This document shows positions 3,650 to 42,554 of a stretch of DNA of 64,000 nucleotides, piece by piece. Each line of letters opens with the position of its first letter. The stretch's first letter is position 1. Position numbers and translations under genes: made by a program. The notes beneath the pieces are model-generated. The model was not told the origin of the DNA. It made no database searches and saw only the letters and a program-made list of their open reading frames with translations. The stretch is from NCBI GenBank assembly GCA_019429365.1, contig JAHYJD010000003.1, positions 30,689 to 94,688 of the forward strand, in the 5' to 3' direction. This stretch comes from Bacteroidales bacterium. GTDB lineage: Bacteria; Bacteroidota; Bacteroidia; Bacteroidales; UBA7960.

Positions 3650-5485
3650 TCAGGGCTCTTCATCGGGCTCGGGGGTAGAAATCAGATGAATTTCAACCCG
3701 GCGCTCTTCTTCACTGAATTCCTCGGAGGAGAATTGATCGCCCAGGGCTTCTGCACTCAGCCGGACTGGGTCGATCCCACAGTCCATCAAAAAATTCAGG
3801 ACGGCTTCTGCGCGCCTGCCCGACAAGATCATGTTGTAAATCGGATCGCCGCTTTTGTCGGTATAGCCCGAAATTTTGCTTAAGAGCAGCGGATAGGCCT
3901 CAAGATCAGCCGCCACTTGTTCCAGTGTTTCCTGATGCGACTCCTGCAACGCAGCGCTGTTGAAGGGGAAGGTAAGAATCACCGGATAACGTGCCATTAG
4001 CGAGTCGGGCACCTGCACAAGAACGACATCCGAAACGATTGAAGGCGTTTCAGTTGCTGTCACCACCGGTTCAACGGGCTCTTTAACAGCCTCCTCTTCC
4101 ACGGGCTCTTGTTTGGCCATTGAAACAGGAGTTTTCACGGTCGAAGTTTTTTCCTGTTTTTCTTTTGCAACCTCAAGCGGCTTTTCAACTTTTGTTTCAG
4201 AAAAAACTTCCTCCGTTACAGTTTCAGTTTGCTGTATTTCGGGCTGAACTTCTTCTGCTGTTTCAATTTCTTTTGTTTCTTCAATTTCTTCAATCTCTTC
4301 TTCCTCTTCAACCACTTCCTCCGGTTCCTTTGGTTTTATTTGGGTTTCAGTTGTCACCGCCTTTGCCTCGGTTTGGCTTATTGTTTCTGTTTCTTTTTCA
4401 GAAACTTCCTCTGTAATAATTTCAGTTTCTAATGGGGCAGCTTGTTTGGTTTCAGTAAATACCTCCCCGCGCACAACCTCAACCTCTTTTTCAATGGTTT
4501 CAGTTTTGACACTTTCAGCTGGCTCTGAGGGGCTTTCAGGAGCAACTGTTTCAGATTCCTCTTCGGCCTCCTCTTCAGTGACTTCTTCGGCTTCTTTTGT
4601 GTCTATTACCACTCTTTTTTCAGTTTCAGTAATGCGCTTATCCCGCAGCATTTGGTGCGCAATGTTGATGGTTACCGCTTCGCCTTCACTCACCCTGATC
4701 TGAATCAGCGTATCGGACAATGAAATGTCGATGCGATTTTCTTCGGATTGGGTAGCCGCTCTGCGCAGTATTACCTTTTCTTCTTCAACCACCCTGGGGC
4801 GGATAATGGGCTGGGGAATGCCCTCCAATTCGTCAAAAGGAATCAGCTGATCTTTCGCTTCCGAGCCTGGCAGCACCGGGAAAAAATCTCCTGCATTAAA
4901 CACCGGTCCGCGGTAACTTATTTTCCTGGCTCCAAAATGGTAAGAGAGGCCCAACTGCCATTGCTGGTAAAAATTCAGTTCGGAAAGTTTGCTGCCCTGG
5001 CTGTCGTTAATGGGGTAATACAAACCAGTAGCGATACGTGCAGAGAAGCGGTCGCTCAACCTGAATTTCAGCCCGTGGGTCATGCCGGCGGCAAACTCGT
5101 GGCTGTCAGAAGCATCGGTACGGGTTTCTCCGGCCAGGTAGCCGGCTTCAATGGTGTGAAAAGGTGCCAGGAAGACGCGTTCGCCCAGCAGCCAGCCATT
5201 GTCCCACCGAAAGCCCAGCGTAAGGGCGGCAAAGCCTGCCTTTTTCAGGTCGCCACCAGCCGGCTTTCCGGCAAAGAGGCTGATCCCTGCGCTGAAGCTG
5301 CGGTTGAGGCTGCGCTCCAGGTGAAGGTTGGCGGCAGTGGATTTGAAGTCTTCCGGAAAACCAAAGGCATTGTCGAACCTGAATGTAGATGCTCCGGCTG
5401 AAAGTTTCCAGTTGAAAATGTCGGTTTGCCCTTGCACTTGCCAGATGCTGAGGAATATGGTTAGGGTAAATATTATTTTTTTCAT
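3650..5485 (-). CDS. OmpA-family outer-membrane protein with long polyacidic linker
   Basis: Signal peptide MKKIIFTLTIFLSIWQVQGQ, then a beta-rich N-terminal domain. A Glu/Thr/Val/Lys-rich segment of about 200-250 aa follows. C-terminal OmpA_C peptidoglycan-binding domain (GYTDKSGDPIYNMILSGRRAEAV). Confidence 0.8.
   Translation of the reverse strand: MKKIIFTLTIFLSIWQVQGQTDIFNWKLSAGASTFRFDNAFGFPEDFKSTAANLHLERSLNRSFSAGISLFAGKPAGGDLKKAGFAALTLGFRWDNGWLLGERVFLAPFHTIEAGYLAGETRTDASDSHEFAAGMTHGLKFRLSDRFSARIATGLYYPINDSQGSKLSELNFYQQWQLGLSYHFGARKISYRGPVFNAGDFFPVLPGSEAKDQLIPFDELEGIPQPIIRPRVVEEEKVILRRAATQSEENRIDISLSDTLIQIRVSEGEAVTINIAHQMLRDKRITETEKRVVIDTKEAEEVTEEEAEEESETVAPESPSEPAESVKTETIEKEVEVVRGEVFTETKQAAPLETEIITEEVSEKETETISQTEAKAVTTETQIKPKEPEEVVEEEEEIEEIEETKEIETAEEVQPEIQQTETVTEEVFSETKVEKPLEVAKEKQEKTSTVKTPVSMAKQEPVEEEAVKEPVEPVVTATETPSIVSDVVLVQVPDSLMARYPVILTFPFNSAALQESHQETLEQVAADLEAYPLLLSKISGYTDKSGDPIYNMILSGRRAEAVLNFLMDCGIDPVRLSAEALGDQFSSEEFSEEERRVEIHLISTPEPDEEP
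4050..4650 (-). repeat. Low-complexity coding region (poly-Glu/Thr/Val/Lys linker of the OmpA protein)
   Basis: Runs such as EEVVEEEEEIEEIEETKEIETAEE, plus a degenerate duplication VFTETKQAAPLETE / VFSETKVEKPLEVA. Visible in the DNA as ttc/ctc-rich + strand sequence. Confidence 0.7.
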
Positions 5486-5566: not shown

Positions 5567-6733
5567 TTAACGGCTCAGACCCAGCCAGAGATTGAGTTCG
5601 AGGCTCAGCCCTACAAAGGGCTTAACGAAAATATTGCTGCTGGAGTTGTTGTTCTTTTCTTCCTGCAGGATGGCCATGCCAGCGTTGAATCTCAGGAAGT
5701 AGGCTGTTTTGTAACCGTAGGCCACATAAATGGGGCGCCCGATCAGCGGCCCGGTAATTTCTCGGCCATCGCCAAAATCGAAATTGGTAAGAAAAAGACC
5801 GGCAGAAATGGAGCTGTTGCTGCGGAACTTGCCGGCAAGGGCAGGATTGCCTAAGGGAAATGATATGCCGGCGTAAGGCGCGCTGTCGTAAGATATGTCG
5901 CTGAATCCGCCTTTATTGTAAATACCGCCAAAACCGAAGTTTATGGGAAGTGTGTTGCGGGTGGGCTCGCTGGGGTAGTCGGGAAGCACCCGCGAGTCGG
6001 CCAGCACCAGCAAATCAAATCCAAGGAACTGGTTCACCTCATGCGCACACATTTGCTGAAGGTCTTCGAGGTTTTGCTGAAAGAAAGCCACACGCAGGGC
6101 CATGTCGTCTTCGCCCTCCTTGCTTAAAATATTGAAACGTGCCCGGCGCAGGCTCAGGTCATTTATGCGCTCCAGCTTATTGTAAACAAGGTCGGAAAAG
6201 CCCGGAAATTCGACCCCTATCTTGTTTCGGTAAAGTTCGAGGCCCTTTGATACGATCTGGTCGAGTTCCTGCCGCATTAACCGAGGATGTTTTGCCAGGG
6301 AAACGCTGTTGCGTCCCGAAACCACCGACATGTTAAGGTAAGCATCGATAGCTTCTCTGATCATTATTCCCAAAAGGTTTACCTCTTCGCGCGAGGCTGG
6401 CCTGAAATAGTTGATGCGCAGGGTGTACTGGTTGTTTCCCCTGAGTACATAGTTTACTGGTATGGAAAAGCTTTGCTCCTGGTAATCTGCAGGCTTCCTG
6501 TAATTGGCAGCAAAAAGTGACTTTTTATCAAAATCAGCAGAGCCGTAAAGTACCAGTTCCACCATGTCTATGCCAGCAGGCAGCATGCCGTTGAGCATCC
6601 ACTGGCTCTCGGCGGGCAAGGGCTGGTTCTCGCCCAGCCAGTTTTTTTCGTAATTGTACTGAATGCTCTTAAACTGGGCATTTATTGTTATTACAGGAAA
6701 GAACAGCAGCAAAAGAGTAAGTTTTTTTAGCAT
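5567..6733 (-). CDS. Secreted hypothetical protein (possible OM-associated), upstream of the OmpA gene
   Basis: ATG 6733 gives MLKKLTLLLLFFPVITINAQ, a signal peptide. The C-terminal third is rich in Gly and aromatic residues and looks beta-like. I recognise no family. Confidence 0.5.
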   Translation of the reverse strand: MLKKLTLLLLFFPVITINAQFKSIQYNYEKNWLGENQPLPAESQWMLNGMLPAGIDMVELVLYGSADFDKKSLFAANYRKPADYQEQSFSIPVNYVLRGNNQYTLRINYFRPASREEVNLLGIMIREAIDAYLNMSVVSGRNSVSLAKHPRLMRQELDQIVSKGLELYRNKIGVEFPGFSDLVYNKLERINDLSLRRARFNILSKEGEDDMALRVAFFQQNLEDLQQMCAHEVNQFLGFDLLVLADSRVLPDYPSEPTRNTLPINFGFGGIYNKGGFSDISYDSAPYAGISFPLGNPALAGKFRSNSSISAGLFLTNFDFGDGREITGPLIGRPIYVAYGYKTAYFLRFNAGMAILQEEKNNNSSSNIFVKPFVGLSLELNLWLGLSR

Positions 6734-6871
6734 AGGAGTATGGTTTAAACGTCGGTAAGAAATTTCTGTCAAAGATCAGACAGACGTGATTTATGAATAA
6801 TGATTAAAGAGTCCCTATTGTCTATAAATATACGTAAAATAATTGAATTTCAAGTGGTTTCTGTTGGGAAA

Positions 6872-6943: not shown

Positions 6944-7516
6944 TTATTTCTGCTTGTCTGTAACGGAGTAGCCGGTATCAACAATGGTGGCAATTATTTC
7001 TTCTTCCGTTAGCCTGGATTTGTCGTAAACCACCTTGGTTTGCATGGCCACATGGTCGGCTTCCACCAATTCTACTCCCTCAAGGCCACCCACCCGCTTT
7101 TCGATGGCATTTTCACATCCGGTACAGGTCATGCCTTCTACCATGAAAATGGTTTCCATGCGGTTTTCGGGGGCGATTTCGATAGCTTGGGGTTCCTTGC
7201 CCATTTTTTCCTCAAGGGTGTTGAGATAAAGGGGCAGGGCAAGTAAAATCACCGCAAAAACGGTAACAATTCCCAGGAACACGACCGGGTTTAACCCGGC
7301 AGGCCTTCTGCGGCCGGTGTCGCGTCCCCTGCGCATAGTCTTGATGTGCTGATACCACAATACCGCAAGCAACAGCAATACCAATACGACGACAAATGGC
7401 CAGAAAGTTATGATACGGTCAATAATTCCCGTTTCAGTAGCAGGAGCCTGACCAAAAGCAAAATTGCCCGCGAAAAACATACTAAAAAACAGACTGAATT
7501 TGGGAAGTTTCTTCAT
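6944..7516 (-). CDS. Membrane-anchored heavy-metal-associated (HMA) domain protein, putative copper chaperone
   Basis: ATG 7516 gives MKKLPKFSLFFSMFFAGNFAFGQ (signal peptide). Two TM helices flank an Arg-rich loop (RRGRDTGRRR). C-terminal HMA fold carries GMTCTGC. Confidence 0.75.
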   Translation of the reverse strand: MKKLPKFSLFFSMFFAGNFAFGQAPATETGIIDRIITFWPFVVVLVLLLLAVLWYQHIKTMRRGRDTGRRRPAGLNPVVFLGIVTVFAVILLALPLYLNTLEEKMGKEPQAIEIAPENRMETIFMVEGMTCTGCENAIEKRVGGLEGVELVEADHVAMQTKVVYDKSRLTEEEIIATIVDTGYSVTDKQK

Positions 7517-7700
7517 GACGTTTTTTTTGTAAATATAGGGTATATTGTGATATGAGCAGAGGTTTTCACTAAAAAGGATTAGAAAAAACAAGTTAAAATT
7601 AACAAGTAATTAAGTAGATAAATACTGAAAATTAAAAAATATTTTTTAACTTTAGTATAGAAAGCGTCAGAAGAATCTTTAACCATTAAAAATCAGCGTC

Positions 7701-9485
7701 ATGAAAAGCTATTTTCAGAAAAACAAGTGGAGGTTCCACTTGTTTTTATTGTTGTTTCTGTTACCTGGGATTTTTCAAACCTTGAATGCTTGTGAGGCGT
7801 GCAACCGTTTGTTTCTTGCCCAGTTAAAGAACCAGCGGGCTGGTTCGCTGGTTTCGCAGGAGCTGCTTGCCACTATTTCGGCCCAGGAGCACATTGGTCG
7901 TAACAATCAGGCTTCCCTTGAGGCCGGCTGGTCCAACAGCACGCTGATTCCAGCCGATGAATCCGTTGCCTCAATGCAATCGGGCGGCTCCAGTGTGCAA
8001 AACGTGCCGGGAGTCGGAACTACTGTTGCTCCTGGTAGTAATGTTGACTTCATTGACATTATCCGTCGCGACAATCGTTTGCCAATTCCTGCCACCAGTT
8101 TTGTGCCCCAAAACACGCCTGCCAACAAAAAAGTGAGAATAACCCTTGAGGAGGGTGATTCTTATATTGGTAATGGGGTTATTTACAAGGGTTTTACCAT
8201 TGATGGCAAGATTCCGGGTCCGACCATTATCGTTGAGGAAGGCGATATTGTTGAATTTAAAATTGTGAATACCGGCGATTTGCCACACGGGGCTTCCATT
8301 CACTCGGTAAACAGCCAGACTTCAAAATACCTTGGCAAGGTGCAGCCCAACGACAGTGCCACGGTGGTTTTTCAGGCCAATATGCCCGGCGTTTACATGT
8401 ATCACTGCGCTCCGGGAGGCCATGCGATCCCCATGCATATTATTTTCGGGCAATATGGTATGATGGTAGTGCGTCCCAAGAAGAAGTTTGAACTGGAAAG
8501 GATCCTTGGGAAAGAGCCCGATATCGAAATCTTTTTGCTTCAGCATGAATACTATGCTTCAGGAAAAGATGCTGTTGAGGGACAAGGTAAGCCGATGTAC
8601 ACTGCATTCAATGGGAAGTTGTTTCGCTATGTGGAAGAACCCATTGTGGGCAAACCCGGCGATTATGTGCGTATCAACTTCCTGAATGCCGGGCCAAACC
8701 TGCTATCCACCTTTCATATTGTTGGCATTATCTGGGATTTTGCCTACTGGCAGGGCCACCCCGACAATAAGTTTACTGGGGGGCAAACAGTAACAGCCGG
8801 GCCTTCCGATTCGTGGGTGGTGGAATTTCGAATACCGCCCGACGAAGGCAGTTACCTGATGCTTTCGCATGCGGTGGGATCTACTGACAGGGGGGCCATT
8901 GGTTTGCTGGTGTGCGACCGCAATGCAGAACCCAATAAGACCGTCCTGGCAGATGGCATCAAATACACCGAAGAAGAAATGGAAGAGTTCAGGCAAAAAG
9001 CCCTGCGCACCATAACCCCGTTTGGCATTGGATCGCCCGATGTGGACGTTCCTGTGGTGTACGGCAATGAGACAAAAGAAGTTATCGTAAGAATTATTGG
9101 AAATTCCTATCATCCGAAAGTGATAAAGGTAACACCCGGCACCACGGTGAAATGGATCAACGAGGATGTGTTTACTTACATGGAGGGTGAGTTCTCTGGT
9201 ATTCACAATGTGATTGTGAAATCTGGGCCCGAGCGCTTTGCCTCCGATATGCTGGCGCATGCCGAAAGCCATTCACAGTTGTTGACTGTCGAGGGTGAAT
9301 ACACTTACATTTGCACCCCACATCCCTACATGGAGGGTAAAATCATTGTAACCAAGGATACAGCCTCGCCGGGTGTTCAGTATGCTGGCACCGGCTCTGC
9401 CCCAACCAGCAAAATGGTGTGGTTTGTGCTGATACTTGCTGCTACTGCCCTTATGATCGCCTTGATCAGCCTGATCAACAAATAG
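7701..9485 (+). CDS. NirK-like (copper nitrite reductase family) two-domain multicopper protein fused to a C-terminal cupredoxin and TM anchor
   Basis: PHGASIH (H196/H201), YMYHCAPGGHAIPMH (H235, C236, H246), STFHIVG and MLSHAVG align with NirK T1/T2 copper motifs. The C-terminal domain has a plastocyanin-type site (GIHNV...YICTPHPYMEG). N-terminal signal or lipoprotein-like peptide ...LNAC. C-terminal TM MVWFVLILAATALMIALISLI. Confidence 0.7.
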   Translation: MKSYFQKNKWRFHLFLLLFLLPGIFQTLNACEACNRLFLAQLKNQRAGSLVSQELLATISAQEHIGRNNQASLEAGWSNSTLIPADESVASMQSGGSSVQNVPGVGTTVAPGSNVDFIDIIRRDNRLPIPATSFVPQNTPANKKVRITLEEGDSYIGNGVIYKGFTIDGKIPGPTIIVEEGDIVEFKIVNTGDLPHGASIHSVNSQTSKYLGKVQPNDSATVVFQANMPGVYMYHCAPGGHAIPMHIIFGQYGMMVVRPKKKFELERILGKEPDIEIFLLQHEYYASGKDAVEGQGKPMYTAFNGKLFRYVEEPIVGKPGDYVRINFLNAGPNLLSTFHIVGIIWDFAYWQGHPDNKFTGGQTVTAGPSDSWVVEFRIPPDEGSYLMLSHAVGSTDRGAIGLLVCDRNAEPNKTVLADGIKYTEEEMEEFRQKALRTITPFGIGSPDVDVPVVYGNETKEVIVRIIGNSYHPKVIKVTPGTTVKWINEDVFTYMEGEFSGIHNVIVKSGPERFASDMLAHAESHSQLLTVEGEYTYICTPHPYMEGKIIVTKDTASPGVQYAGTGSAPTSKMVWFVLILAATALMIALISLINK

Positions 9486-9552
9486 TGCGGGGTTTAATTC
9501 TCTTTCCAGATCGGGTGATCAATCATGGGGTGCAACAGTATGCTCCATTTTT

Positions 9553-10428
9553 CTAGCGCAGAAGTGCATCAAGCATAAACACCAGCATCATGGCCAGGTA
9601 GAAAAGGTTGATTTTCAGGAAGGCTGGCTTTGGGTCGGGATGGTCGCTTTTTCCGTGCCATTTTCTGAAGGAATAAATCAGTGCAAGTGCCAGGGCGAAA
9701 ACGCTGAGTGAGAGTATTTGCGAATGGATGACACCGAAAAGTGCCGGCAGTATGGCTGCCATGGCCGTGGCTGCCACCCAGATCAAAGTCAGGTTGGCAA
9801 TTTGCCGGCTGGTAAACAAGCGGGTAATTGTTGGAAAACCAGCCTTCTCATAATCGTTACCGTATTTCAGCAAAATCAGCCAGAAATGGGGGATTTGGCC
9901 GATGAAAAAGAAGAAGGCCACCAGGATGATATGCGGATGCAATATGGACCCGCCTGCAGCTGTCCATCCAATTATGGGAGGAAGGGCGCCAACCAGTGAG
10001 CCCGGTACCACGGCAAAGGCTGTCTTTTGTTTCAGCCAGGTATAAATCAGGTTGTACCAGAGCAGGGTCAGGATACCCAGAAGAAGAGGAGTTTTTGAAT
10101 CTAGCCTTGCAAGGAGCAGAATGCCAATGGCAATGAGAATGGCCGAAAAAACAATCGCAATGCTTTTTGAAACCCTTCCTGAGGGGATAGGCCTTTGCCT
10201 GGTACGCTCCATCAGGCTGTCGGGTGTTGCCTCCTGAATATGATTCAGTGTTGCCGAACCTGCCGAAAGCAGATACACCCCCAGAATGGCACCCAACCAA
10301 CCTTTTGCAAAAAAGCCCTGACTCAATAAGAAACCGGTCAGGGCAGTTAAGGCTACAGAAAGGGTGATAATGGGTTTGGTCAGCTGAACCATTGCCAGCA
10401 ACCGACCTCTTATTTCCCGTTTACTCAT
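9553..10428 (-). CDS. ctaB: Protoheme IX farnesyltransferase (heme O synthase)
   Basis: UbiA-family polytopic protein, 291 aa. Overlaps the coxII stop by 8 nt and is the last gene of the oxidase cluster. Confidence 0.8.
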   Translation of the reverse strand: MSKREIRGRLLAMVQLTKPIITLSVALTALTGFLLSQGFFAKGWLGAILGVYLLSAGSATLNHIQEATPDSLMERTRQRPIPSGRVSKSIAIVFSAILIAIGILLLARLDSKTPLLLGILTLLWYNLIYTWLKQKTAFAVVPGSLVGALPPIIGWTAAGGSILHPHIILVAFFFFIGQIPHFWLILLKYGNDYEKAGFPTITRLFTSRQIANLTLIWVAATAMAAILPALFGVIHSQILSLSVFALALALIYSFRKWHGKSDHPDPKPAFLKINLFYLAMMLVFMLDALLR

Positions 10429-11362
10429 TCAGCGATTTAAGGAACTCTACTATTAACTCAATTTGCTGCTCGCTTATTTCACCCTCATATGAAAACATTT
10501 GCCCGGGCCGATAGCCCTGGTGAATGTCATAGTCAGGTTCATAAATCGAGCGACGGACATAATCATAATCAAAGAGCACTTCACGCTGCTGCCCTTGTGT
10601 TATTACCGGCACATTGCTGCCCCATGCTCCTTTAAAGGTAGGTCCGATAATGGTGGAACCATCAAGGGAGTGACAGGCCAGGCAACCCTTGCTTTCCACA
10701 ATTTGGCGGCCGAGCAAGGCCAGGTCGGCGCCTTCTTCCACGGGCAGAGCCACTCCGGTGGTATCAGCATACCAGGTCCAGAATTCCTCCGGTTCCATTA
10801 CGACTACCTCGGTATGCATGTAACTGTGTTGCAAGCCGCAGTATTCGGTGCAGAACAACGAGTAACTTCCCAGCTTGGTGGCCTCGAACCACAATCGGTT
10901 GTTGGCTAGTCCGGGCACCATGTCTTCCTTCACCCTGAAGGCAGGAATATATAGCGAGTGTATCACATCTACGGCATTCAGGGTCAGGATAACGGCCGTG
11001 TCTTTGGGCACGTAAAGCTTGTCGGTAACCCTGCCGTTGTCGTAGCGAAAGGAGAAACTCCACATGCGGGCATTGGCGGTTATCTCAACCCCTTCAGAGG
11101 GGATTCTCTTCATAGGTTTCCAGCCCACATATCCGTAATAAAACATACCCATTACCAGGGCCAGCGGAATCACAGTCCAGATGATCTCCAGTTTGGTGCT
11201 GCCCGCATTCTGAACCGCTTTGGGATGTTTTTTCTTGTTGTAACGATAAAGAAAAAGGATCATCACCAGGGTTATCCCGATCAGGAAGAAAAAGGAAATT
11301 CCCAGGATGAATATAAAGGCATTGTCTACGCCTTCTACAAATGTTGAAGCTCCAGAGTTCAT
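10421..11362 (-). CDS. ctaC: Cytochrome c oxidase subunit II with fused C-terminal cytochrome c domain (caa3-type)
   Basis: CuA site CTEYCGLQHSYMH and a C-terminal heme c motif CLACHS. Confidence 0.9.
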   Translation of the reverse strand: MNSGASTFVEGVDNAFIFILGISFFFLIGITLVMILFLYRYNKKKHPKAVQNAGSTKLEIIWTVIPLALVMGMFYYGYVGWKPMKRIPSEGVEITANARMWSFSFRYDNGRVTDKLYVPKDTAVILTLNAVDVIHSLYIPAFRVKEDMVPGLANNRLWFEATKLGSYSLFCTEYCGLQHSYMHTEVVVMEPEEFWTWYADTTGVALPVEEGADLALLGRQIVESKGCLACHSLDGSTIIGPTFKGAWGSNVPVITQGQQREVLFDYDYVRRSIYEPDYDIHQGYRPGQMFSYEGEISEQQIELIVEFLKSLNE

Positions 11363-11371
11363 AAGGCAATA

Positions 11372-11656
11372 TTATCTGTATGAATAATCGAAAAAGGTAA
11401 CAAGCAGAACCAGCAGAAATACAACCACTACGGCCGAAACCATAAAGGCAAAGAAACGGCTCTCGAACTTGAGGTGCATAAACCAGGCCAGCACAATGGC
11501 GGCTTTAATGCCTGCAATGATCATGGCGGCCAGGGTGTTCATCGGGCCCATTTCCAGTTGGGTTATGGCCACGCTAATGCCTGTTAGTACCAGCAGGGCC
11601 AGTAAAACAAAAGCATGGGTGCGGTAGCTTACTATGTGATGTTTTTCTTCGCTCAT
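11372..11656 (-). CDS. Cytochrome c oxidase subunit IV (small prokaryotic type)
   Basis: 94 aa with three hydrophobic helices, positioned between subunits III and II. Confidence 0.65.
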   Translation of the reverse strand: MSEEKHHIVSYRTHAFVLLALLVLTGISVAITQLEMGPMNTLAAMIIAGIKAAIVLAWFMHLKFESRFFAFMVSAVVVVFLLVLLVTFFDYSYR

Positions 11657-11668
11657 AACAACTCCTTT

Positions 11669-12265
11669 TTAATGGATCAGATAAAACAGGGGGAACAGGA
11701 ATATCCAGATCAGGTCGACCAGGTGCCAGTATAAGCCGGTGTTCTCTAGCCAGACGTAGTCGGTCTGATGTATCTTGTCTTTTCTGATCTGCCAAAACAC
11801 ATAAATGAACAGGGCAATGCCGATGATTATGTGCAGGGCGTGAATGCCTGTCATGATAAAATACAGCCCGAAGAAAAGGATGGTACCAGGACCCAGCTCC
11901 AGCAGCTCAGGGGCTCCGGGGTTGAAACCATACTCAAACTTGGCACCCCATTCAAAATACTTGTTGACAAGAAAAACCACTGCAATTATAAGGGTAATGG
12001 TTAGCAGGGTTAAGGCCAGTTTTTTATTTCCCTTTTGCATGGCCGAGATCGACATGGCCACGGTCATACTGCTAATAAGCAATATTATGGTGTTGATGGT
12101 CCCCATCACCACATCCAGTTCATCTCCGCCAAGTTTGAAGGCTTCGGGGTGCATGGAGCGGTAAACGGCATAAACCACAAAGAGCATCCCAAAAAGCAGC
12201 AGCTCAGTAAAGATAAAGAGCCACATGCCCATTTTGTCTCCCAGGTCATCGCGATGTACGGTCAT
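11669..12265 (-). CDS. ctaE: Cytochrome c oxidase subunit III
   Basis: 198 aa polytopic protein. Typical CoxIII C-terminus ...YWHLVDLIWIFLFPLFYLI. Confidence 0.85.
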   Translation of the reverse strand: MTVHRDDLGDKMGMWLFIFTELLLFGMLFVVYAVYRSMHPEAFKLGGDELDVVMGTINTIILLISSMTVAMSISAMQKGNKKLALTLLTITLIIAVVFLVNKYFEWGAKFEYGFNPGAPELLELGPGTILFFGLYFIMTGIHALHIIIGIALFIYVFWQIRKDKIHQTDYVWLENTGLYWHLVDLIWIFLFPLFYLIH

Positions 12266-12288
12266 AATCTCCTGTATTTTGTTAATGC

Positions 12289-13902
12289 TTAGTCTTCATA
12301 ATCGTAAGGTCCCTTTACGATGGTGGGAATCTCTTCAAAGTTCTCCAGGGTGGGAGGGGTGTCGACCTGCCATTCCAGGGTTTTTCCGCCCCAGGGGTTC
12401 TTATCGGAAGTTTTTTCCCCGTGGCGGGCAGAACGAATCAGGTTGGCAAAAATGATGACAATACCCGAAACCATTACCCAGGCACCCAGCGAAGAAACAA
12501 TGTTACCTCCATGGAAGTCGGGAAGGTAGTCGTAATATCTGCGGGGCATACCCATTATCCCCAGGTAAAACATGGGCAGATACAGGGTATTGAAACCGAT
12601 GAAGAAAATGCCCCAGCCCAGGTTGGCCCAGTTCATGTCGTACATTCGTCCGAACATTTTGGGAAACCAGTAGTGCAGTGCGGCCATGAAGGCATAGCCC
12701 GTTCCGCCAAATACAATAAAGTGGAAGTGGGCCACCACAAAGTGGGTGTCGTGCACATGCACATTGGTGGCCAGCGAGCCCAGCACCAAACCGGTAAGGC
12801 CGCCGATCATAAACACAAAAATGAAAGATACAGCCCAGTAAAAAGGCGTTTGCATATGCAGCGAACCTCTGTGCATGGTGCTCACCCAGTTGAATACCTT
12901 AATGGCCGATGGGATAGCTACCAGGAAGGTGAGGAAAGAAAAGGCGTATAGCGCTCTGCCGCTCATCCCTGATGTGAACATATGGTGACCCCACACAAAA
13001 TACCCCACGAAAGCAATAGCCATGGTAGAAAGTACAATGGCCTTGTATCCGAAAATAGTCTTGCGCGAAAATACGGGAATAATCTCGCTAATGGCACCCA
13101 TACCCGGCAGGATCATGATATAAACGGCTGGGTGGGAATAAATCCAGAAAAGGTGCTGGTACAGAATGGGGTCGCCACCCAGGGCGGGATCAAAGATTCC
13201 GATTCCCATTAGGCGTTCAGCAATAATAAGCAGCAGGGTGATGCCAATTACGGGCGTGGCCAGGATTTGAATCCATGCCGTGCCATAAAGAGTCCACGGA
13301 AAGAGCGGCATCTTGAACCAGGTCATGCCTGGTGCACGCATCCGGTGAATGGTTACCACAAAGTTTATCCCCGTAAGGATGGACGAGAAGCCCATGACAA
13401 AAGCGCCGAAAACCGCTGGCAAAACGTTGGTTGGGGTGCGGAAACTGTAAGGGGCGTAAAAAGTCCAGCCGGTATCGGGGGGGCCATCACCCATAAACTG
13501 GGAAGTTAGCACAATCAGGATGCCGATGATATAAAACCACCACGAAAGCAGGTTAAGCTTTGGGAATGCCACATCCTTGGCCCCAATCATAATGGGCAGG
13601 AAAAAGTTGCCAAAAACAGCAGGAAGTCCCGGCACTACAATAATGAATATCATAATAATGCCGTGCAAAGTAAACAGGCTGTTGTAGGTTTGTGGCCCCA
13701 TGATGGTGTAACCGGGAGCAATGAGCTGGGTTTTCATTAATAAACCCAGGATAGCAGCCACCGAAAAGAAAAGCAGCATGGTGTAAAGATACAGCAAGCC
13801 GATCCGCTTGTGGTCGGTGGAAAATATCCATGCAAAAAGACCTTTATATTGCCCCTTATATTCAAGGTAACTGACGTTGTGGGCGTTGTTTGCTTCTGAC
13901 AT
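12289..13902 (-). CDS. ctaD: Cytochrome c oxidase subunit I (heme-copper oxidase)
   Basis: 537 aa with hallmark motifs GHHMFTSG, WFFGHPEVY-like LFWIYSHPAVYI, and HDTHFVVAHFH. Confidence 0.95.
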   Translation of the reverse strand: MSEANNAHNVSYLEYKGQYKGLFAWIFSTDHKRIGLLYLYTMLLFFSVAAILGLLMKTQLIAPGYTIMGPQTYNSLFTLHGIIMIFIIVVPGLPAVFGNFFLPIMIGAKDVAFPKLNLLSWWFYIIGILIVLTSQFMGDGPPDTGWTFYAPYSFRTPTNVLPAVFGAFVMGFSSILTGINFVVTIHRMRAPGMTWFKMPLFPWTLYGTAWIQILATPVIGITLLLIIAERLMGIGIFDPALGGDPILYQHLFWIYSHPAVYIMILPGMGAISEIIPVFSRKTIFGYKAIVLSTMAIAFVGYFVWGHHMFTSGMSGRALYAFSFLTFLVAIPSAIKVFNWVSTMHRGSLHMQTPFYWAVSFIFVFMIGGLTGLVLGSLATNVHVHDTHFVVAHFHFIVFGGTGYAFMAALHYWFPKMFGRMYDMNWANLGWGIFFIGFNTLYLPMFYLGIMGMPRRYYDYLPDFHGGNIVSSLGAWVMVSGIVIIFANLIRSARHGEKTSDKNPWGGKTLEWQVDTPPTLENFEEIPTIVKGPYDYED

Positions 13903-13920
13903 GTTGTTGCGGAATAATGG

Positions 13921-14703
13921 TTAATTCGTACGTTTTTTAGGCTTAAGAACTAAGAACAGTAAAATGACCAAGGCAAAGAACAGAATCAAAGTGCCGGAAA
14001 CCTTGGTAATGTTCAGCACATATTGTTGTCCTGCCGGGTCAAAGGTATAGCAATAAGAGAGCACTCTGCTAAGCGAAGGGCCCGATTTGCCCTCGGCGGT
14101 TTCAATCACGGCCATCTTAATGTCGATAGGCAAAAAGTAGGTGCCATGCAGGTAGCGGGTTATTTTGCCGTCGTGGGTAATAAAGATCATGGCCGAAGTG
14201 TGAAGAAAGTCAAACCCGGTGCGCTTGTATTTAAAGCCCACTGCCTCGGTAACTCTTTTAATGTTGGCGCTGTCGGCCACGAAAAATTGCCAGCCGTTGG
14301 GGTCGATTTCTTTGTTGATAAGATGATGATAATTGTTGCGGTTGGTGCGGGCCAGTTCGGGGCCTTCGCGCGGGTCGAAACTGATGGAAAGAATCTGGTA
14401 TTCTTTTCCAATGGTCATGTCGCTGCGCGACACCACTTCGGCCATCGACTCCATAAACGGGCTGCAAATGCCCGGGCAACGGTAATATACCAGTGCGATC
14501 ACTGTGGGCTTGTCAACCAGCTGCTCCAGCGTCACGCGCTGGCCAATCTCGTTAATCAGTTCGATGTCGAGGGGCACTTGCTGATCGAGCCGCTCGAAAA
14601 TGCCAATCTCTGGTTCGTTGGGCTGGTAGGTCCTGTCAAGGTCCTGGGCCACAATAGCCAGCGGTGCTGCAAAACACAAAAGAATCAATAGGGCTCGTTT
14701 CAT
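13921..14703 (-). CDS. SCO1/SenC-family copper chaperone (thioredoxin fold)
   Basis: ATG 14703 gives MKRALLILLCFAAPLAIVAQ. CxxxC motif CPGICSP and a C-terminal TM anchor. The longer ORF-track start (14829) overlaps actF. Confidence 0.8.
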   Translation of the reverse strand: MKRALLILLCFAAPLAIVAQDLDRTYQPNEPEIGIFERLDQQVPLDIELINEIGQRVTLEQLVDKPTVIALVYYRCPGICSPFMESMAEVVSRSDMTIGKEYQILSISFDPREGPELARTNRNNYHHLINKEIDPNGWQFFVADSANIKRVTEAVGFKYKRTGFDFLHTSAMIFITHDGKITRYLHGTYFLPIDIKMAVIETAEGKSGPSLSRVLSYCYTFDPAGQQYVLNITKVSGTLILFFALVILLFLVLKPKKRTN

Positions 14704-14714
14704 TGTACTTTTTT

Positions 14715-15875
14715 TTATAAATGATGATGAATACTTTCTTGGAGCATGGGGTGGTTTACCGGCACTACCCTTATCCGCGAAAGCGCAGTGAAAACCATTA
14801 AAAGGTACAAGCCGGCATAGCCTATCCAAATGCCAATTTCAATAAATCCCAATTTCAAAACGCCATAGCTGCCCGGCATAATCTGCAAAAACAGGCTGAC
14901 CCAAAGTCCTACCATGAGCAGGGCGCTGATGCCGATCATCACGGGCTTTTTCTTACCGGTATTGTCGGCCATTACCACAATAAAAGGTATGGCAAAATTA
15001 ATAAGCGGCTCGGCATAGAAAAAGAATTGCCACTCACCCAGGAATCGGGGCGAATAATACACGGTTAGTTCGGGAATGTTGGCATACCAGAGGATCAGGA
15101 ATTGCATGAACCAAAGATAGCCAAAAACAATGCTGAAGCGGAAAAGATACCGCGCCAGGTCGTGGCGGTGGGCTTCGTTAAGCTCTTTCAAAAACCCCAG
15201 GTTTTTCAAATAAAACACCAATAGAATGATTATGGCTGTGCCGTAATACATGCTGGTAATCATAGCCCTGAAACCAAAAATGGTGCTGTACCAATGGGCA
15301 TCTATTGTCATGATCCAGTCGATGGCGGCCAGCGAGAAAATTAGCACGGCGGCAAAAATGAAAACTTTGGAATAAAAAGCACTTTTGATGTACCATTGCT
15401 CGCCGCCTTCCAAATCTTCTTTTTTGGCCATTTTGCGCATCATGATAAAAAGGGGTATCCAAAGGGCAAAATAAATGACCATTCGAATCATGAAAAATGG
15501 CACGTTAAGGAAAGGTGCCTTGTGGGCTATAAGTTTATCGGTTTCGGTAATGCCCGGGTGCGACCATTCGTAAATGTCGTGCAGGCCGAAATACAGCAGT
15601 AACATCAAGATAAAGCCTGCAGGCAGGAAAGCACCTGCCGCCAGTGGAATGCGTTGAAATAGTGCCGACCATGACGAACCAGTAATGTATTGAATGCCAT
15701 AAAACATCAGGGCGCCAATGCTTATGGTAATAAAATACATATTGTTAAGCAGGATGTTGGGCCAGGTCCTGGCGCTGTCGGTGGCAAAACCGGCAATAAG
15801 GGCAACTACACCAATGGCAATCATTGCAGCCAAAATGGCCAGGAGTTTTTTTGAGGGTTTAAAACTTGTATCCAT
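14715..15875 (-). CDS. actF: Alternative Complex III subunit ActF (NrfD-like membrane subunit)
   Basis: Polytopic membrane protein after actE. ATG 15875 (MDTSFKPSKKLL) avoids overlap with actE. Confidence 0.75.
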   Translation of the reverse strand: MDTSFKPSKKLLAILAAMIAIGVVALIAGFATDSARTWPNILLNNMYFITISIGALMFYGIQYITGSSWSALFQRIPLAAGAFLPAGFILMLLLYFGLHDIYEWSHPGITETDKLIAHKAPFLNVPFFMIRMVIYFALWIPLFIMMRKMAKKEDLEGGEQWYIKSAFYSKVFIFAAVLIFSLAAIDWIMTIDAHWYSTIFGFRAMITSMYYGTAIIILLVFYLKNLGFLKELNEAHRHDLARYLFRFSIVFGYLWFMQFLILWYANIPELTVYYSPRFLGEWQFFFYAEPLINFAIPFIVVMADNTGKKKPVMIGISALLMVGLWVSLFLQIMPGSYGVLKLGFIEIGIWIGYAGLYLLMVFTALSRIRVVPVNHPMLQESIHHHL

Positions 15876-15888
15876 AATGGGTTCCGTT

Positions 15889-16500
15889 TTACTTTTCCTG
15901 CAATACTTGTTCAACAAAGGCCACAATCTTCCAGCGATCTTCGGGCCTGATCAGCGAGGCATGTGCTCCCATAACGCCCCAGCCCACCGAGATTACATGG
16001 TAGGTTTCGCCTTCGGGTTTGGCAATAAATTCGGGGGTGATAAGCGAAGCCGGCGGGATAATGTACTTGCCGCTGGTGTGCAGACTGCCTTTTCCGTCGC
16101 CATTTTCACCATGACAATTCTGGCAAAATACCCTGTACAATTCTCTTCCTTCTTCGAGCATTTGCGGGGTCATTTGCAGTGGGTTCTGCAACTTTTGGCC
16201 TGCCAGTTCGCGGCTCTCAAAGTCGTTGCCATAAGGATAGGGCTCCATGCCGCGTGGCACGGTGCCAGCCACCGGTTCGCGCATGGTTTTGCCATCGTCC
16301 ATGGCTTCGTTGGCCGACCAGGTTTTGTATGCCCGGCCGTGCGCCATGTCAGGAAAATACTCGAAGCCCTTGTCCATTCGGGTACGGTCGCAGCCCGCAA
16401 AAACTACAAGGACCATTAATGCCGCCGCCAGGCTAAGGCCTCTTTTCAATACTGTTTTGTAATAGCCACACATAATTAAATGGTATAAGTTAGGCTTCAT
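15889..16500 (-). CDS. actE: Alternative Complex III monoheme cytochrome c subunit ActE
   Basis: Single CQNCHG heme motif and a lipoprotein-like N-terminus (...VVFAGC). The start is uncertain: TTG 16512, ATG 16500 or ATG 16473. Confidence 0.75.
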   Translation of the reverse strand: MKPNLYHLIMCGYYKTVLKRGLSLAAALMVLVVFAGCDRTRMDKGFEYFPDMAHGRAYKTWSANEAMDDGKTMREPVAGTVPRGMEPYPYGNDFESRELAGQKLQNPLQMTPQMLEEGRELYRVFCQNCHGENGDGKGSLHTSGKYIIPPASLITPEFIAKPEGETYHVISVGWGVMGAHASLIRPEDRWKIVAFVEQVLQEK

Positions 16501-17002
16501 TTTCTTCTTCAATGATTTCTTCCACCCCCGAATCCTGCAACCATTGTATTATCTCTTCCGGGTTAAAGTTGCGGTCGAGCACCAGGTAAAAGCGGTCGTC
16601 GAGGCTGCGCGGATGAACAACTTTTGCGCTTTTTCCAGGGAACATCTTTTCGCTGGTGAGAAACGAAAAAGTGGTAAATGCCCCTGTAATAAGAATGCAG
16701 ACCAGGAACAAAATGACCACCATGGGTGGAAAAGCAAAAACCGGCTTTCCGCCATAATGCAAGGGGTAGTCGATTACCGAAACATAATACACAAAAGCAA
16801 AAGTGAGTATTATGGTAATTACCCCTGTGGCCACCGACAGGTAAGGAAGGCGCGATTCTTTGGTGAGTTTTTTGATCAGGTCGTGGTCGGCACTCGGGCC
16901 AAAGATGCCCTTAATGTTGACGCCGTTTTCCTTCAGCTTCTGCGTTGCCTTGAGCAAAACGGACTCGTCGTCAAACACACCTATGATTTGTTTAGTGCTC
17001 AT
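16490..17002 (-). CDS. actD: Alternative Complex III subunit ActD (DUF3341-type)
   Basis: 170 aa with two central TM helices, positioned between actC and actE. Confidence 0.7.
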   Translation of the reverse strand: MSTKQIIGVFDDESVLLKATQKLKENGVNIKGIFGPSADHDLIKKLTKESRLPYLSVATGVITIILTFAFVYYVSVIDYPLHYGGKPVFAFPPMVVILFLVCILITGAFTTFSFLTSEKMFPGKSAKVVHPRSLDDRFYLVLDRNFNPEEIIQWLQDSGVEEIIEEENEA

Positions 17003-18371
17003 GGTCTTGTGCTTTTTGTTTTCTTAATTTTTCGGCCCGGGCAATGGGCTTAACCTCATTAACTGCCACAATAGGTATATACCTTACAAACATCAGCATA
17101 CCACAGGTAAACAGCCCGAAAGTCCCCAGGTAAATGCCAATGTCGACCATGGTGGGGCTGTAATGAGTCCAGCTCGAAGGCAGAAAATCTTCGGCCAGCG
17201 ACGAAACAAGGATAATATACCTTTCGAACCACATGCCAATATTTATGACTATTGAAACCAAAAACAGAATTATCAAATTTTTGCGGGCATTCTTAAACCA
17301 GAAAAGTTGAGGGATGACTGCGTTGAACACAAACATGATCCAGAATGCCACCGAGAAACTGCCTGTGGCACGTGCCCTGAAAAAGGTGTATATTTCGTAA
17401 TCGACGCCCGAATACCACGCGGTAAACATCTCGGTAACATAGGCCAGCCCAATAATGAGCGAGCCATATTTTAGCACATGGGCAATGTTGTCGAGGTGCT
17501 TTTCGGTTATATAGTCAAAAAGATTAAAGGCTTTTCTGAAAAGGATCATCAGGGTAAGCACCATGGCAAAACCGCTGAAGATGGCACCCACAAAGAAGTA
17601 AGGTGGCAAAATGGTGGCATGCCATCCGGGCAGCACCGACACGGCAAAGTCGAGGGCCACAATGGTATGTACCGAAATAACCAGGGGAGCAGCCAGGCCG
17701 CCCAGTATCTTCATCAGGGTTTCGTAACGGTTGTAGGTATAAAGCGATCCGTTCCAGCCCAGGCTGAACATCCCGTAAAGGAATTTGCCTACCTTGTTTT
17801 TGGTACGCTGAGCAATGGTAGCCAGATCAGGAACCATACCCATGTACCAAAGCATGATGGAGGTGATCAGGTAGGTGGATATAGCCAGCACGTCCCAGAA
17901 CAGGGGCGAGTTGAAGTTGAGCCACAGCAGGCGGGTGTTGGGATATGGCAGTATGAAAAATGCCAGCCAGGGTCTTCCCATATGGATGAGCGGAAACAGG
18001 CCTGCACACATTACGGCAAACACCGTCATGGCTTCGGCCGAACGGTTAATGGAGCCTGCCCATTTTTGCCTGAATACCAAAAAGAAAATGGTAAAAGCTG
18101 TGCCGGCGTGACCAATGCCGATCCACCATACAAAGTTTATAATGTCCCAGCCCCAGGCCACGCTGTTGGTAAGGCCCCAAGTGCCAAGGCCCTGGCTCAG
18201 CGACATGTAAAAGGCCCAACCACCAATGGCCAGCAGTATGGTGCCTATGGTCATGCCCGCAAACCACCACAGTGGTGGCTTCTGCTCTACGTTAAGCAGC
18301 AACTCGTCGGTTATCTGCCCGTAGGTCTTGTCTCCCTTTACCAGGGCATATCTTATTTTATTGTTTATCAT
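16992..18371 (-). CDS. actC: Alternative Complex III quinol-binding membrane subunit ActC (NrfD/PsrC family)
   Basis: 459 aa polytopic protein. NrfD-like sequence directly downstream of actB. Confidence 0.85.
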   Translation of the reverse strand: MINNKIRYALVKGDKTYGQITDELLLNVEQKPPLWWFAGMTIGTILLAIGGWAFYMSLSQGLGTWGLTNSVAWGWDIINFVWWIGIGHAGTAFTIFFLVFRQKWAGSINRSAEAMTVFAVMCAGLFPLIHMGRPWLAFFILPYPNTRLLWLNFNSPLFWDVLAISTYLITSIMLWYMGMVPDLATIAQRTKNKVGKFLYGMFSLGWNGSLYTYNRYETLMKILGGLAAPLVISVHTIVALDFAVSVLPGWHATILPPYFFVGAIFSGFAMVLTLMILFRKAFNLFDYITEKHLDNIAHVLKYGSLIIGLAYVTEMFTAWYSGVDYEIYTFFRARATGSFSVAFWIMFVFNAVIPQLFWFKNARKNLIILFLVSIVINIGMWFERYIILVSSLAEDFLPSSWTHYSPTMVDIGIYLGTFGLFTCGMLMFVRYIPIVAVNEVKPIARAEKLRKQKAQDHEH

Positions 18372-18402
18372 ACACGATGTTTATTGTGGTTCAACATCAT
18401 AA

Positions 18403-21363: not shown

Positions 21364-21435
21364 TTGGAAACAGTTTGTATTGCTGAATAATCTTTTTAAT
21401 GGCGCTTTCGCGGAAAGTCATGCCAGGCAAGCTGA

Positions 21436-24430: not shown

Positions 24431-24511
24431 AATTGCTCCTGAAAGCAAAGTTTTTTGCAAATGCCGTTTTGGCCTTTAATCCCGGCATGTTGTTTGAATT
24501 GCAGAATAGTG

Positions 24512-24519
24512 TAAATTTG
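24512..24519 (+). promoter_or_regulatory. Candidate -7 box TAAATTTG
   Basis: Matches TAnnTTTG, 32 nt upstream of ATG 24551. Confidence 0.4.
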
Positions 24520-24550
24520 TTTTCCCGAAAAACAGAGTAAAAAGCCAGTA

Positions 24551-42506: not shown

Positions 42507-42518
42507 ACCTGATTTATT

Positions 42519-42554
42519 AACCGCTTTGGATATCAGAGCGGTTTCTTTGTTTTT
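42519..42554 (+). terminator. Rho-independent terminator after the lycopene cyclase gene
   Basis: AACCGCT (42519-42525), 11-nt loop, AGCGGTT (42537-42543), then TCTTTGTTTTT. Confidence 0.6.

Follow-up and report, generated by a model that had tools for sequence, protein, structure and literature searches.

A probable membrane-tethered copper nitrite reductase of the TsNirK type, with an N-terminal CxxCN module, encoded in a Bacteroidales genome

Background

The stretch of 64,000 nucleotides analysed here, referred to as the window throughout, belongs to a Bacteroidales genome (GenBank assembly GCA_019429365.1, contig JAHYJD010000003.1) and carries at positions 7701-9485 of the forward strand an open reading frame (ORF) whose deduced protein aligns with copper nitrite reductases (NirK) and has other residues at two positions that define the canonical enzymes, the catalytic aspartate (Asp-CAT) and the axial methionine of the type 1 copper (T1Cu) site. 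The locus raises the question whether such a protein is still a nitrite reductase or whether, as a preliminary description of the window had proposed, the altered site and the fused C-terminal cupredoxin place it outside the known tethered NirK types and suggest a different substrate or role. The recognition of a NirK-family protein with an altered site and membrane anchoring was supported by the present analysis. The comparison with characterised enzymes indicates that the protein is probably a copper nitrite reductase forming nitric oxide (NO) from nitrite, which faces the periplasm, is tethered to the membrane and belongs to the type of TsNirK from Thermus scotoductus SA-01. The three-copper, three-domain design of that enzyme is evident in the window protein from sequence, phylogenetic tree and structural model alike.

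Domain layout and copper sites of the NirK-type protein

The residues named in the preliminary description (H196, S199, H201, H235, C236, H246 and Q251) were all found at these positions of the ORF, and the motifs STFHIVG, MLSHAVG and YICTPHPYMEG occupy amino acids 336-342 (with H339), 387-393 (with H390) and 536-546, respectively. Pfam matches of the 594-amino-acid protein comprise Cu-oxidase_3 at residues 162-261 and the plastocyanin/azurin domain (PF00127) at residues 469-550, and the hydropathy profile shows a hydrophobic stretch at residues 12-32 and a strong transmembrane (TM) helix at about residues 570-592. The proposed fusion of a plastocyanin-like domain and a C-terminal TM helix to the NirK core was thereby confirmed. 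The layout of the gene is given below, with local confidence of the AlphaFold2 (AF2) model expressed as predicted local distance difference test (pLDDT).

7701-9485, + strand: nirK-type ORF, 594 amino acids; NirK core with Ser/Gln site and C-terminal cupredoxin
7701-7790, + strand: predicted signal peptide, residues 1-30; positive n-region, 12-residue h-region and c-region ending in ...LNA, followed by Cys31
7791-7892, + strand: conserved N-terminal module, residues 31-64; C31-E-A-C34-N35-R, then helices 30-43 and 50-63
7893-8045, + strand: variable, low-complexity, flexible linker, residues 65-115; length and sequence differ among homologs, AF2 pLDDT <50 at residues 69-105
8046-8936, + strand: NirK catalytic core, domains I and II, residues 116-412; TIGR02376 match at residues 135-404
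8295-8297, + strand: codon of S199 (Ser-CAT), the serine that aligns with the catalytic Asp of canonical NirK
8451-8453, + strand: codon of Q251, axial Gln of the core T1Cu at the canonical Met position, by alignment
8937-9068, + strand: inter-domain connector, residues 413-456, with helix 424-433 in the AF2 secondary structure; aligns to the connector of TsNirK
9069-9353, + strand: domain III, amicyanin-like cupredoxin, residues 457-551; PF00127 and amicyanin TIGR02657 matches
9354-9407, + strand: short flexible tether, residues 552-569; variable in the alignment, pLDDT about 52-66
9408-9482, + strand: predicted C-terminal TM anchor, residues 570-594, ending in Asn-Lys; hydropathy and AF2 helix 570-593

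The arm formed by residues 116-147 is conserved and part of the NirK core, and the low-complexity stretch of about 110 amino acids described earlier behind a signal-like peptide shrank to the roughly 50 variable residues 65-115, while the signal-like peptide itself was retained. The database copy of the protein (P0001, 567 amino acids) begins only at codon 28, a TTG, and is consequently devoid of the signal peptide. The ATG at position 7701 appears to be the better start, since the homologs keep a full signal peptide upstream of this TTG codon. A terminator-like hairpin with a 13-bp stem at positions 7719-7747 falls inside the part of the gene that codes for the signal peptide; rather than acting as a terminator, it probably reflects the abundance of Leu and Phe codons there.

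Alignment to NirK structures assigned H196, C236, H246 and the axial Q251 to the T1Cu of the core (T1CuN) and H201, H235 and H390 to the type 2 copper (T2Cu), with H235 and C236 directly adjacent and H201 and H235 corresponding to H80 and H114 of TsNirK. A second T1Cu in domain III (T1CuC) is coordinated by H502, C538, H541 and M544, and the remaining residues of the catalytic core are Ser-CAT S199, the catalytic histidine (His-CAT) H339 of the STFHIVG motif, V341, Q362 and T363. The T1Cu and T2Cu ligands and the His-CAT position proposed earlier were all recovered in the ORF. Measured against canonical NirK, the protein possesses the T1 His-Cys-His set, the three T2 histidines and the His-CAT of domain II, whereas neither Asp-CAT (H-x-x-D-x-H) nor the axial T1 Met is found.

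Both exchanges were examined in HMMER alignments and in a family scan that considered one genome per species, detected a relative in 274 genomes and kept 79 loci, from which 78 full sequences (the window protein and 77 homologs) were obtained. In the alignment with Geobacillus NirK (3X1E), PHGASIH faces PHSMDFH with Ser on Asp, and HIIFGQYG faces HIANGMHG with Gln on Met. As these alignments are gapless at both motifs, the two exchanges, which the preliminary description had taken from a manual alignment, are real and not alignment slips. Moreover, the columns of Ser199 and Gln251 contain Ser and Gln in all 78 homologs, and neither an Asp nor a Met stands at a shifted position from which it could re-create the canonical motifs in the alignments to 3X1E and 6HBE or among the 78 homologs. 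All ligands of the three coppers, H339, Val341, Q362, T363, E497 and His241 are likewise invariant in this set.

Relationship to the three-domain nitrite reductase TsNirK

Ser-CAT, an axial Gln and a C-terminal cupredoxin are already known in combination from TsNirK (PDB 6HBE), a three-copper, three-domain NirK that was solved and assayed in 2019 (Opperman et al., IUCrJ, PMC6400189). The enzyme contains T1CuC in a C-terminal amicyanin-like cupredoxin, a T1CuN with His2-Cys-Gln ligation and the loop H75-G-L-S78-I-H80 with Ser-CAT (PMC6400189). A phmmer search returned 6HBE as the best PDB match of the window protein, with an E-value of 1.7e-117 over residues 148-550 and with Ser78 and Gln130 aligned to S199 and Q251. 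A profile built from 149 family sequences (alignment A2) matched 6HBE with an E-value of 2.4e-159 and the next structure with 3.2e-52, and BLASTP yielded 45% identity to TsNirK over 422 amino acids.

The phylogenetic position was deduced from a neighbour-joining tree with Kimura distances over 266 core columns of 129 NirK cores, comprising 50%-identity representatives from an exhaustive search of 1.84 billion proteins, the genome homologs, TsNirK and the Geobacillus enzyme GtNirK, the latter two taken from the PDB search alignments. The window protein and TsNirK fall into a clade of 18 members, all of which carry Ser and Gln and none of which is an Asp/Met sequence; this clade was recovered in 300 of 300 bootstrap replicates. 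Asp and Met occur together in 97 of the 129 cores, and the nearest outgroups of the Ser/Gln clade are Geobacillus-type NirKs with both canonical residues. An apparent second Ser/Gln lineage (P0181) was rejected as an alignment artefact; this sequence is a degenerate NirK-cytochrome c fusion in which the T1 Cys is lost (YHSATP).

The AF2 monomer model computed on 149 diverse sequences reached a pLDDT of 86.6 and a predicted TM-score of 0.83; a run on 20 close homologs (pLDDT 58.8) was discarded. Foldseek superimposed the model on chain A of 6HBE with a target-normalised TM-score of 0.91 and a root-mean-square deviation (rmsd) of 2.1 A over 430 columns, the docked domain III included. Residue by residue, 21 of 26 mapped TsNirK positions are identical in the window protein, among them all copper ligands, Ser-CAT, His-CAT, Val-CAT, Gln239/Thr240 and Glu385. 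The principal correspondences are as follows.

TsNirK H75, S78 and H80: H196, S199 and H201 of the window protein
TsNirK H114 and C115: H235 and C236
TsNirK H125 and Q130: H246 and Q251
TsNirK H216 and V218: H339 and V341
TsNirK Q239 and T240: Q362 and T363
TsNirK E385: E497
TsNirK H390, C428, H431 and M434: H502, C538, H541 and M544

The five differing positions belong to the second shell (L77, N92, residue 121, V265 and R389 in TsNirK numbering, with residue 121 given as Ile121 in PMC6400189 and being Gly under the numbering used here). Since Ser, Gln and the C-terminal cupredoxin are the defining features of TsNirK, no new chemistry needs to be invoked for the window protein, and its proposed placement outside the known tethered NirK types is contradicted by the same combination in TsNirK and by the fully supported clade that it shares with this characterised nitrite-reducing enzyme. 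TsNirK turns over nitrite with a kcat of 65 s-1, a Km of 27 uM and a kcat/Km of 2.4e6 M-1 s-1, it reoxidises pseudoazurin when nitrite is present, and an electron path from T1CuC via T1CuN to T2Cu was proposed from its structure (PMC6400189). The notion of a different substrate or role is likewise not supported, given an assayed enzyme that reduces nitrite with the same site and the conservation of the active-site residues.

The fold comparison also bears on a reading of the protein as a multicopper oxidase of the two-domain type, which would contain a trinuclear cluster and carry an appended cupredoxin. The model for such an architecture is Nmar_1354 (MCO4) of Nitrosopumilus maritimus, in which a T2/T3 trinuclear cluster couples the oxidation of NH2OH to HNO with the reduction of O2 (PMC11761707). 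The structure of this oxidase (9CCK) matches residues 146-550 of the window protein with an E-value of 4.6e-23 and ranks third in Foldseek, and the Pfam label of the core is that of multicopper oxidase domains. The superposition, however, gave a TM-score of 0.59 and an rmsd of 10.5 A for 9CCK against 0.91 and 2.1 A for 6HBE. The T1 cysteine is followed by Ala in H235-C236-A237 (HCA), as in 77 of the 78 sequences with Ser in the remaining one, instead of forming H-C-H; domain I shows the H-x4-H spacing of NirK (H196...H201) and not H-x-H pairs, which together with H-C-H provide the eight histidines of the T2/T3 cluster in enzymes such as Nmar_1354 and SLAC; only the three T2 histidines and His-CAT are present; and the T1 sites of 9CCK have an axial Met. 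Ligand motifs and fold comparison thus rule out a 9CCK-like oxidase with a trinuclear cluster, to which we assign next to no probability.

Gene neighbourhood in the window and across the family

The gene lies between a copper-chaperone-like gene and the cluster for alternative complex III (ACIII) and caa3 oxidase, as had been described before. The flanking features are listed below.

6944-7516 (ORF to 7591), - strand: divergent neighbour, membrane protein of about 190 amino acids with a C-terminal HMA domain (MTCTGC; PF00403, E=6.5e-14)
7607-7656, + strand: conserved block upstream of nirK, composed of TAATTAAGTAGATAAATA, about 22 nt and TTAACTTTAG; alignment of 200-nt upstream regions
9525-9548, + strand: hairpin resembling a terminator, located where nirK and ctaB converge; consensus scan, weak, with 4 sites found against 2.9 expected
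9553-22695, - strand: ACIII-caa3 operon converging on nirK

The operon encodes, in this order, ActA (multihaem), ActB, ActC, ActD, ActE (cytochrome c), ActF and an Sco-like protein, which are followed by COX1, COX3, COX4, a COX2-cytochrome c fusion and finally ctaB. It is a Bacteroidetes-type ACIII-caa3 respiratory module. The length of the HMA protein was counted from a Met located 26 codons into the ORF, as this 190-amino-acid version adjoins nirK in the loci L001-L003. The protein has a signal-like N-terminus and two TM segments split by an Arg-rich loop (positions 6944-7591), and according to the positive-inside rule its HMA domain would face the periplasm, where it is a possible Cu(I) chaperone. 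A periplasm-facing HMA domain is unusual among HMA chaperones. The protein could serve NirK, the CuA site of the caa3 oxidase or both. In the upstream region of nirK, the block from TAATTAAGTAGATAAATA to TTAACTTTAG is common to 10 of 12 close relatives. TTAACTTTAG resembles the Bacteroidetes -7 box TAnnTTTG and could represent a putative promoter, and TAATTAAGTAGATAAATA might be an operator.

To describe the context at the family level, genes within 6 kb of nirK in the 79 loci were subjected to unbiased clustering, with the following counts.

RIC/ScdA: 18 of 79 loci; the commonest neighbour, present in Ignavibacteria, Balneolaceae and Prolixibacteraceae and located mostly 170-870 bp upstream
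caa3 genes: 13 of 79 loci; close Bacteroidales relatives only
Rrf2: 11 of 79 loci; always together with RIC
HMA: 7 of 79 loci; close relatives only

Accordingly, the link to caa3, ACIII and the chaperone that had been suggested from the window is lineage-specific. The same caa3/HMA arrangement occurs in L001-L003 (81% identity) and L007 (74% identity), and such a coupling as a property of the whole family was rejected because the synteny is absent in L004, L005 and L006. RIC-linked and caa3-linked loci do not overlap. The locus L005 (71% identity) contains on one strand RIC/ScdA, a hemerythrin gene, qNorB and nirK, the latter being the last gene and located directly downstream of qNorB; on the opposite strand upstream are genes for an Rrf2 regulator, a DUF438/hemerythrin protein and a Crp-family regulator. 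A separate tblastn screen with the qNorB sequence of L005 detected qNorB in three further loci. RIC, NsrR-type Rrf2 regulators and qNor are hallmark genes of NO response and NO consumption. Their presence beside nirK across phyla therefore provides independent support for the formation of NO by these enzymes.

The set of RIC/ScdA, hemerythrin, qNorB and nirK recurs in Prolixibacteraceae-type genomes (positions 921-9791 of L005; L023, L025 and L040), with Rrf2, DUF438/hemerythrin/PAS, DUF1858 and Crp genes on the opposite strand upstream. Among these genomes is the isolate 'Bacteroidales bacterium 6E' (L025), which offers a cultivable system for studies of function.

Nitrite as the probable substrate

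Several observations weigh against the assignment as a nitrite reductase. The NCBIfam equivalog model of NirK (TIGR02376), which was built on canonical NirKs, matches residues 135-404 with an E-value of 9.5e-39 and 133.6 bits, far below its cutoff of 296.3, and the NCBI label of the relatives is only 'multicopper oxidase domain-containing protein', the name given to the clade by JGI being 'nitrite reductase (NO-forming)'. The immediate neighbours of nirK are aerobic-respiration genes, among them the adjoining oxidase operon, and a scan of the whole 64-kb window revealed no nar, nap, nor or nos gene. The identity to the only assayed enzyme, TsNirK, is no higher than 45%. Furthermore, TsNirK is about 7-fold slower than AxNiR and about 12-fold slower than GkNiR, its Ser-based mechanism was left unsettled, and its role in vivo was left open, T. 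scotoductus also having NirS (PMC6400189).

The low score of the NirK model, the adjoining aerobic oxidase operon and the absence of nor and nos genes nearby, together with the importance of the exchanged Asp, could be accommodated by an enzyme that was retuned through the Asp-to-Ser and Met-to-Gln exchanges for the oxidation of hydroxylamine or another small molecule, for O2 reduction or for pure electron transfer, and that is no physiological nitrite reductase. Asp-CAT is essential in canonical NirKs, the D98 variants of AxNiR being strongly impaired (cited in PMC6400189), and the structurally related Nmar_1354 with its C-terminal cupredoxin acts on NH2OH. The latter, however, uses a trinuclear T2/T3 cluster, the ligands of which are missing from the window protein. 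The one assayed member of the clade reduces nitrite with the kinetic constants given above, the window protein retains every residue that lines the active site of this enzyme, and RIC, Rrf2 and qNorB recur as neighbours across phyla. We consider the retuned enzyme improbable and retain nitrite as the most plausible substrate.

The N-terminal CxxCN module and the C-terminal anchor

The window protein extends beyond the TsNirK design at both ends. Cys31 and Cys34 are present in 78 of 78 sequences and Asn35 in 74, and F38 and Q62 are conserved to at least 90% in alignment A2. Within the DNA of the loci examined, the pattern of a signal sequence followed by CxxCN occurs solely ahead of the NirK core, in 78 of 78 cases. 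Residues 1-135 are not matched by any model of Pfam or NCBIfam. The AF2 model shows a hairpin of the helices 30-43 and 50-63 with a pLDDT of about 86-91, and residues 69-105 are disordered and variable.

Position -1 relative to Cys31 is Ala in 68 of the 78 homologs and otherwise Ser, Thr or Gly. Position -3 is occupied by A, L, S, V, G, I or T, and position -2 accepts any residue, including R, K, D, E, H, Y and F. This composition fits the (-3,-1) rule of signal peptidase I better than a lipobox, and the mature protein would probably begin with C-x-x-C-N. Of the 'signal or lipoprotein-like peptide' in the preliminary description, the signal peptide was upheld, and its lipoprotein variant appears less likely than plain cleavage by signal peptidase I. 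Were Cys31 instead the lipobox cysteine, it would be diacylated after cleavage by signal peptidase II, the enzyme would have a membrane attachment at either end, and CxxC would not be a free cysteine pair. The cysteine behind the signal peptide in all 78 sequences and the residues A, S, G or T at position -1 are compatible with lipidation, as are the relaxed lipoboxes of Bacteroidetes, the LLAAC sequence followed by a flexible linker in the aligned Geobacillus NirK, one of the nearest two-domain relatives, and the lipoprotein nature of AniA from Neisseria. However, position -2 is mostly R, K, D, E, H, Q, Y, F or N and position -3 often A, S or G, a combination that is atypical of the lipobox L-[ASTVI]-[GAS]-C and typical of the signal peptidase I rule. 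Lipidation also leaves the equally invariant Cys34 and Asn35 unexplained, and two gammaproteobacterial members keep CxxC without having the C-terminal TM helix. On balance, lipidation is regarded as rather unlikely.

In Cu(I)-binding motifs of the HMA type and in redox-active motifs, a CxxC is usually placed at the N-terminal end of a helix, and one may guess that the CxxCN hairpin captures Cu(I) for metallation or forms a thiol redox site.

At the other end of the protein, about 20 variable residues after the cupredoxin precede a helix of about 22 residues with a Kyte-Doolittle mean of up to 2.67, and such a TM helix is present in 76 of the 78 homologs. The two exceptions are gammaproteobacterial; both retain CxxC, and their chain stops right after the cupredoxin. 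The window protein ends in Asn-Lys, and the aligned homologs as well as P0121 and P0122 end in K or R or have longer tails containing these residues. As K/R at the chain end follows the positive-inside rule, the C-terminus is predicted to be cytoplasmic and the enzyme periplasmic.

The two additions do not always occur together, P0122 having the anchor and no CxxC, and P0124 and TsNirK having neither. A monophyletic subclade of the CxxC sequences was not recovered (4 of 200 bootstraps); P0122 and the fragment P0125 branch within the group of CxxC sequences, and the CxxC module and the anchor are therefore separable. The more distant NirKs P0129, P0145, P0151 and P0173 combine a C-terminal cupredoxin with Asp and Met, so that the fused cupredoxin is more widespread than the Ser/Gln site. 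One of them, the canonical Asp/Met protein P0145, has a C-terminal TM helix in addition to the cupredoxin, from which it follows that such anchoring arose more than once.

Predicted electron transfer pathway

On the basis of signal-peptide statistics and hydropathy, the protein would be exported with a Sec signal peptide that is cleaved before Cys31, and the C-terminal TM helix would hold the mature enzyme on the outer face of the cytoplasmic membrane, with the CxxCN helical hairpin hanging on the disordered linker of about 50 residues. The short spacing of about 20 residues between cupredoxin and TM helix would place the copper at which electrons enter near membrane-bound donors such as ACIII or membrane cytochromes c. 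By analogy with TsNirK, an external donor would reduce the distal blue copper T1CuC (H502/C538/H541/M544), from which the electron would reach T1CuN of the same subunit, over a distance of about 14 A, by way of the contact between E497 and H246 and then pass through the Cys-His bridge C236-H235 to the catalytic T2Cu. The latter is expected to be held by H201, H235 and H390 of the neighbouring subunit in a trimer like that of 6HBE. Nitrite would be reduced at T2Cu with S199 and H339, linked through Q362/T363 and waters, in place of the canonical Asp/His pair.

Distribution and significance

The 79 loci come from entries titled Bacteroidales, Prolixibacteraceae/Mariniphaga, Lentimicrobiaceae, Chitinophagales, Balneolales and Ignavibacteria, as well as Opitutales/Verrucomicrobia, Kiritimatiellae, Lujinxingiaceae and a few Gammaproteobacteria. 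The TsNirK type, first known from Thermus and a handful of uncharacterised sequences, is widespread in bacteria of the FCB and PVC groups from sediments, digesters and saline lakes, where its members are almost always membrane-anchored and often encoded beside NO-stress or NO-reductase genes. Uncharacterised relatives with extended C-termini were noted in Thermus, Fraserbacteria and Crenothrix (PMC6400189). The available part of that article describes no membrane anchor or N-terminal CxxC and contains zero occurrences of 'transmembrane' and 'signal peptide', and no later description of an anchored or CxxC form was found in the literature searched, the coverage of which is incomplete. The C-x-x-C-N motif with its helical hairpin and the C-terminal anchor thus look undescribed.

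A nirK classification in wide use admitted only sequences with Asp62 and Met115 (PMC4770552), a filter by which the Ser/Gln clade would be excluded. Surveys with nirK sequences validated by Asp and Met would discard the clade, and the capacity of these phyla to convert nitrite to NO may be underestimated. The CxxCN hairpin and the anchor moreover bear on the metallation of periplasmic copper enzymes and on their wiring to membrane donors. A more far-reaching proposal, which we put forward only tentatively, is that the membrane-anchored branch constitutes a distinct, undescribed Ser-CAT subfamily in which CxxCN is a fourth functional site, for example a built-in arm for Cu(I) capture and metallation or a thiol redox or NO-sensing switch, and in which the anchor lets the electron-entry copper draw directly on membrane complexes such as ACIII. 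If this were true, the clade would, given the Asp and Met demanded in nirK curation, amount to a guild of NO producers that has largely gone uncounted, with members in at least 274 genomes at the species level from Bacteroidota, Ignavibacteria, Balneolales, Verrucomicrobiota and others.

Further features of the window

The reverse strand encodes at 3650-5485 an OmpA-family protein of 611 amino acids with a very long low-complexity insert rich in Glu, Thr, Lys and Val between the beta-barrel and the OmpA domain, and beside it, at 5567-6772, a protein of 401 amino acids without a Pfam match; both genes are syntenic in L001-L003. Just beyond the ACIII operon, the forward strand carries at 23183-26896 a gene for a response regulator fused to an adenylate/guanylate cyclase and another for a hybrid PAS histidine kinase; these proteins might be involved in redox- or O2-linked regulation. 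The region from about 42000 to 50000 has a GC content of 0.40-0.43 against about 0.48 elsewhere in the window and may be an acquired segment; its genes encode a lycopene cyclase, a fatty-acid-desaturase-like protein, an ECF sigma factor, a thioredoxin-like protein, YceI, a DUF4833 protein and a cysteine-dioxygenase-like protein. A compact pentose-phosphate/glycolysis operon with gnd, zwf, pgl, tkt, tal and pgi occupies positions 52896-60871 of the forward strand.

Comparison with known systems

Among the characterised systems, Nmar_1354 shares with the window protein a two-cupredoxin core and a pendant C-terminal T1 cupredoxin, and is itself trimeric, whereas the trinuclear T2/T3 cluster and the axial Met are features of its own. 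The closest two-domain NirKs are those of Geobacillus (GtNirK/GkNirK; 3X1E, 3WI9) and AniA (1KBV), with 32-34% identity and TM-scores of 0.8-0.9. They resemble the window protein in the Cys at the end of the signal peptide, in the flexible linker of low complexity that follows and in the N-terminal arm, and GkNiR also has Val at the Ile-CAT position (PMC6400189). In contrast, they carry Asp-CAT (PHSMDFH) and the axial Met (ANGMHG), have neither a third domain nor a C-terminal TM helix, and their single N-terminal Cys is part of a classical lipobox (LLAAC).

A redox partner fused to the NirK core is likewise found in HdNiR, with an N-terminal cupredoxin (2DV6), and in RpNiR and PhNiR, with a C-terminal cytochrome c (3ZIY/2ZOO). 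In these enzymes the extra domain is of another type or at another position, the catalytic Asp and the Met are canonical, and the extra domain contacts the neighbouring subunit and not its own core (PMC6400189). The Asp/Met proteins P0129, P0145, P0151 and P0173, with about 29-35% identity to the window protein, stand outside the Ser/Gln clade.

TsNirK is the system in closest agreement. Both proteins consist of NirK domains I and II followed by an amicyanin-like cupredoxin that is docked on its own subunit, and both have a T1CuN with His2-Cys-Gln ligation, the loop H-G-x-S-x-H (H196-G-A-S199-I-H201 in the window protein) and a T1CuC with His2-Cys-Met ligation. They also share Val in place of Ile-CAT, the Gln/Thr pair linking Ser-CAT to His-CAT and the Glu on the path from T1CuC to T1CuN. 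TsNirK as deposited comprises 451 residues, of which about 19 precede the core and about 4-11 follow the cupredoxin, and its chain aligns to residue 447. It belongs to a thermophile and to a nirS-containing denitrification cluster, whereas the gene in the window is part of a Bacteroidales-type genome and adjoins the caa3/ACIII operon. TsNirK has no CxxCN hairpin, long linker or TM anchor, and the window protein possesses all three.

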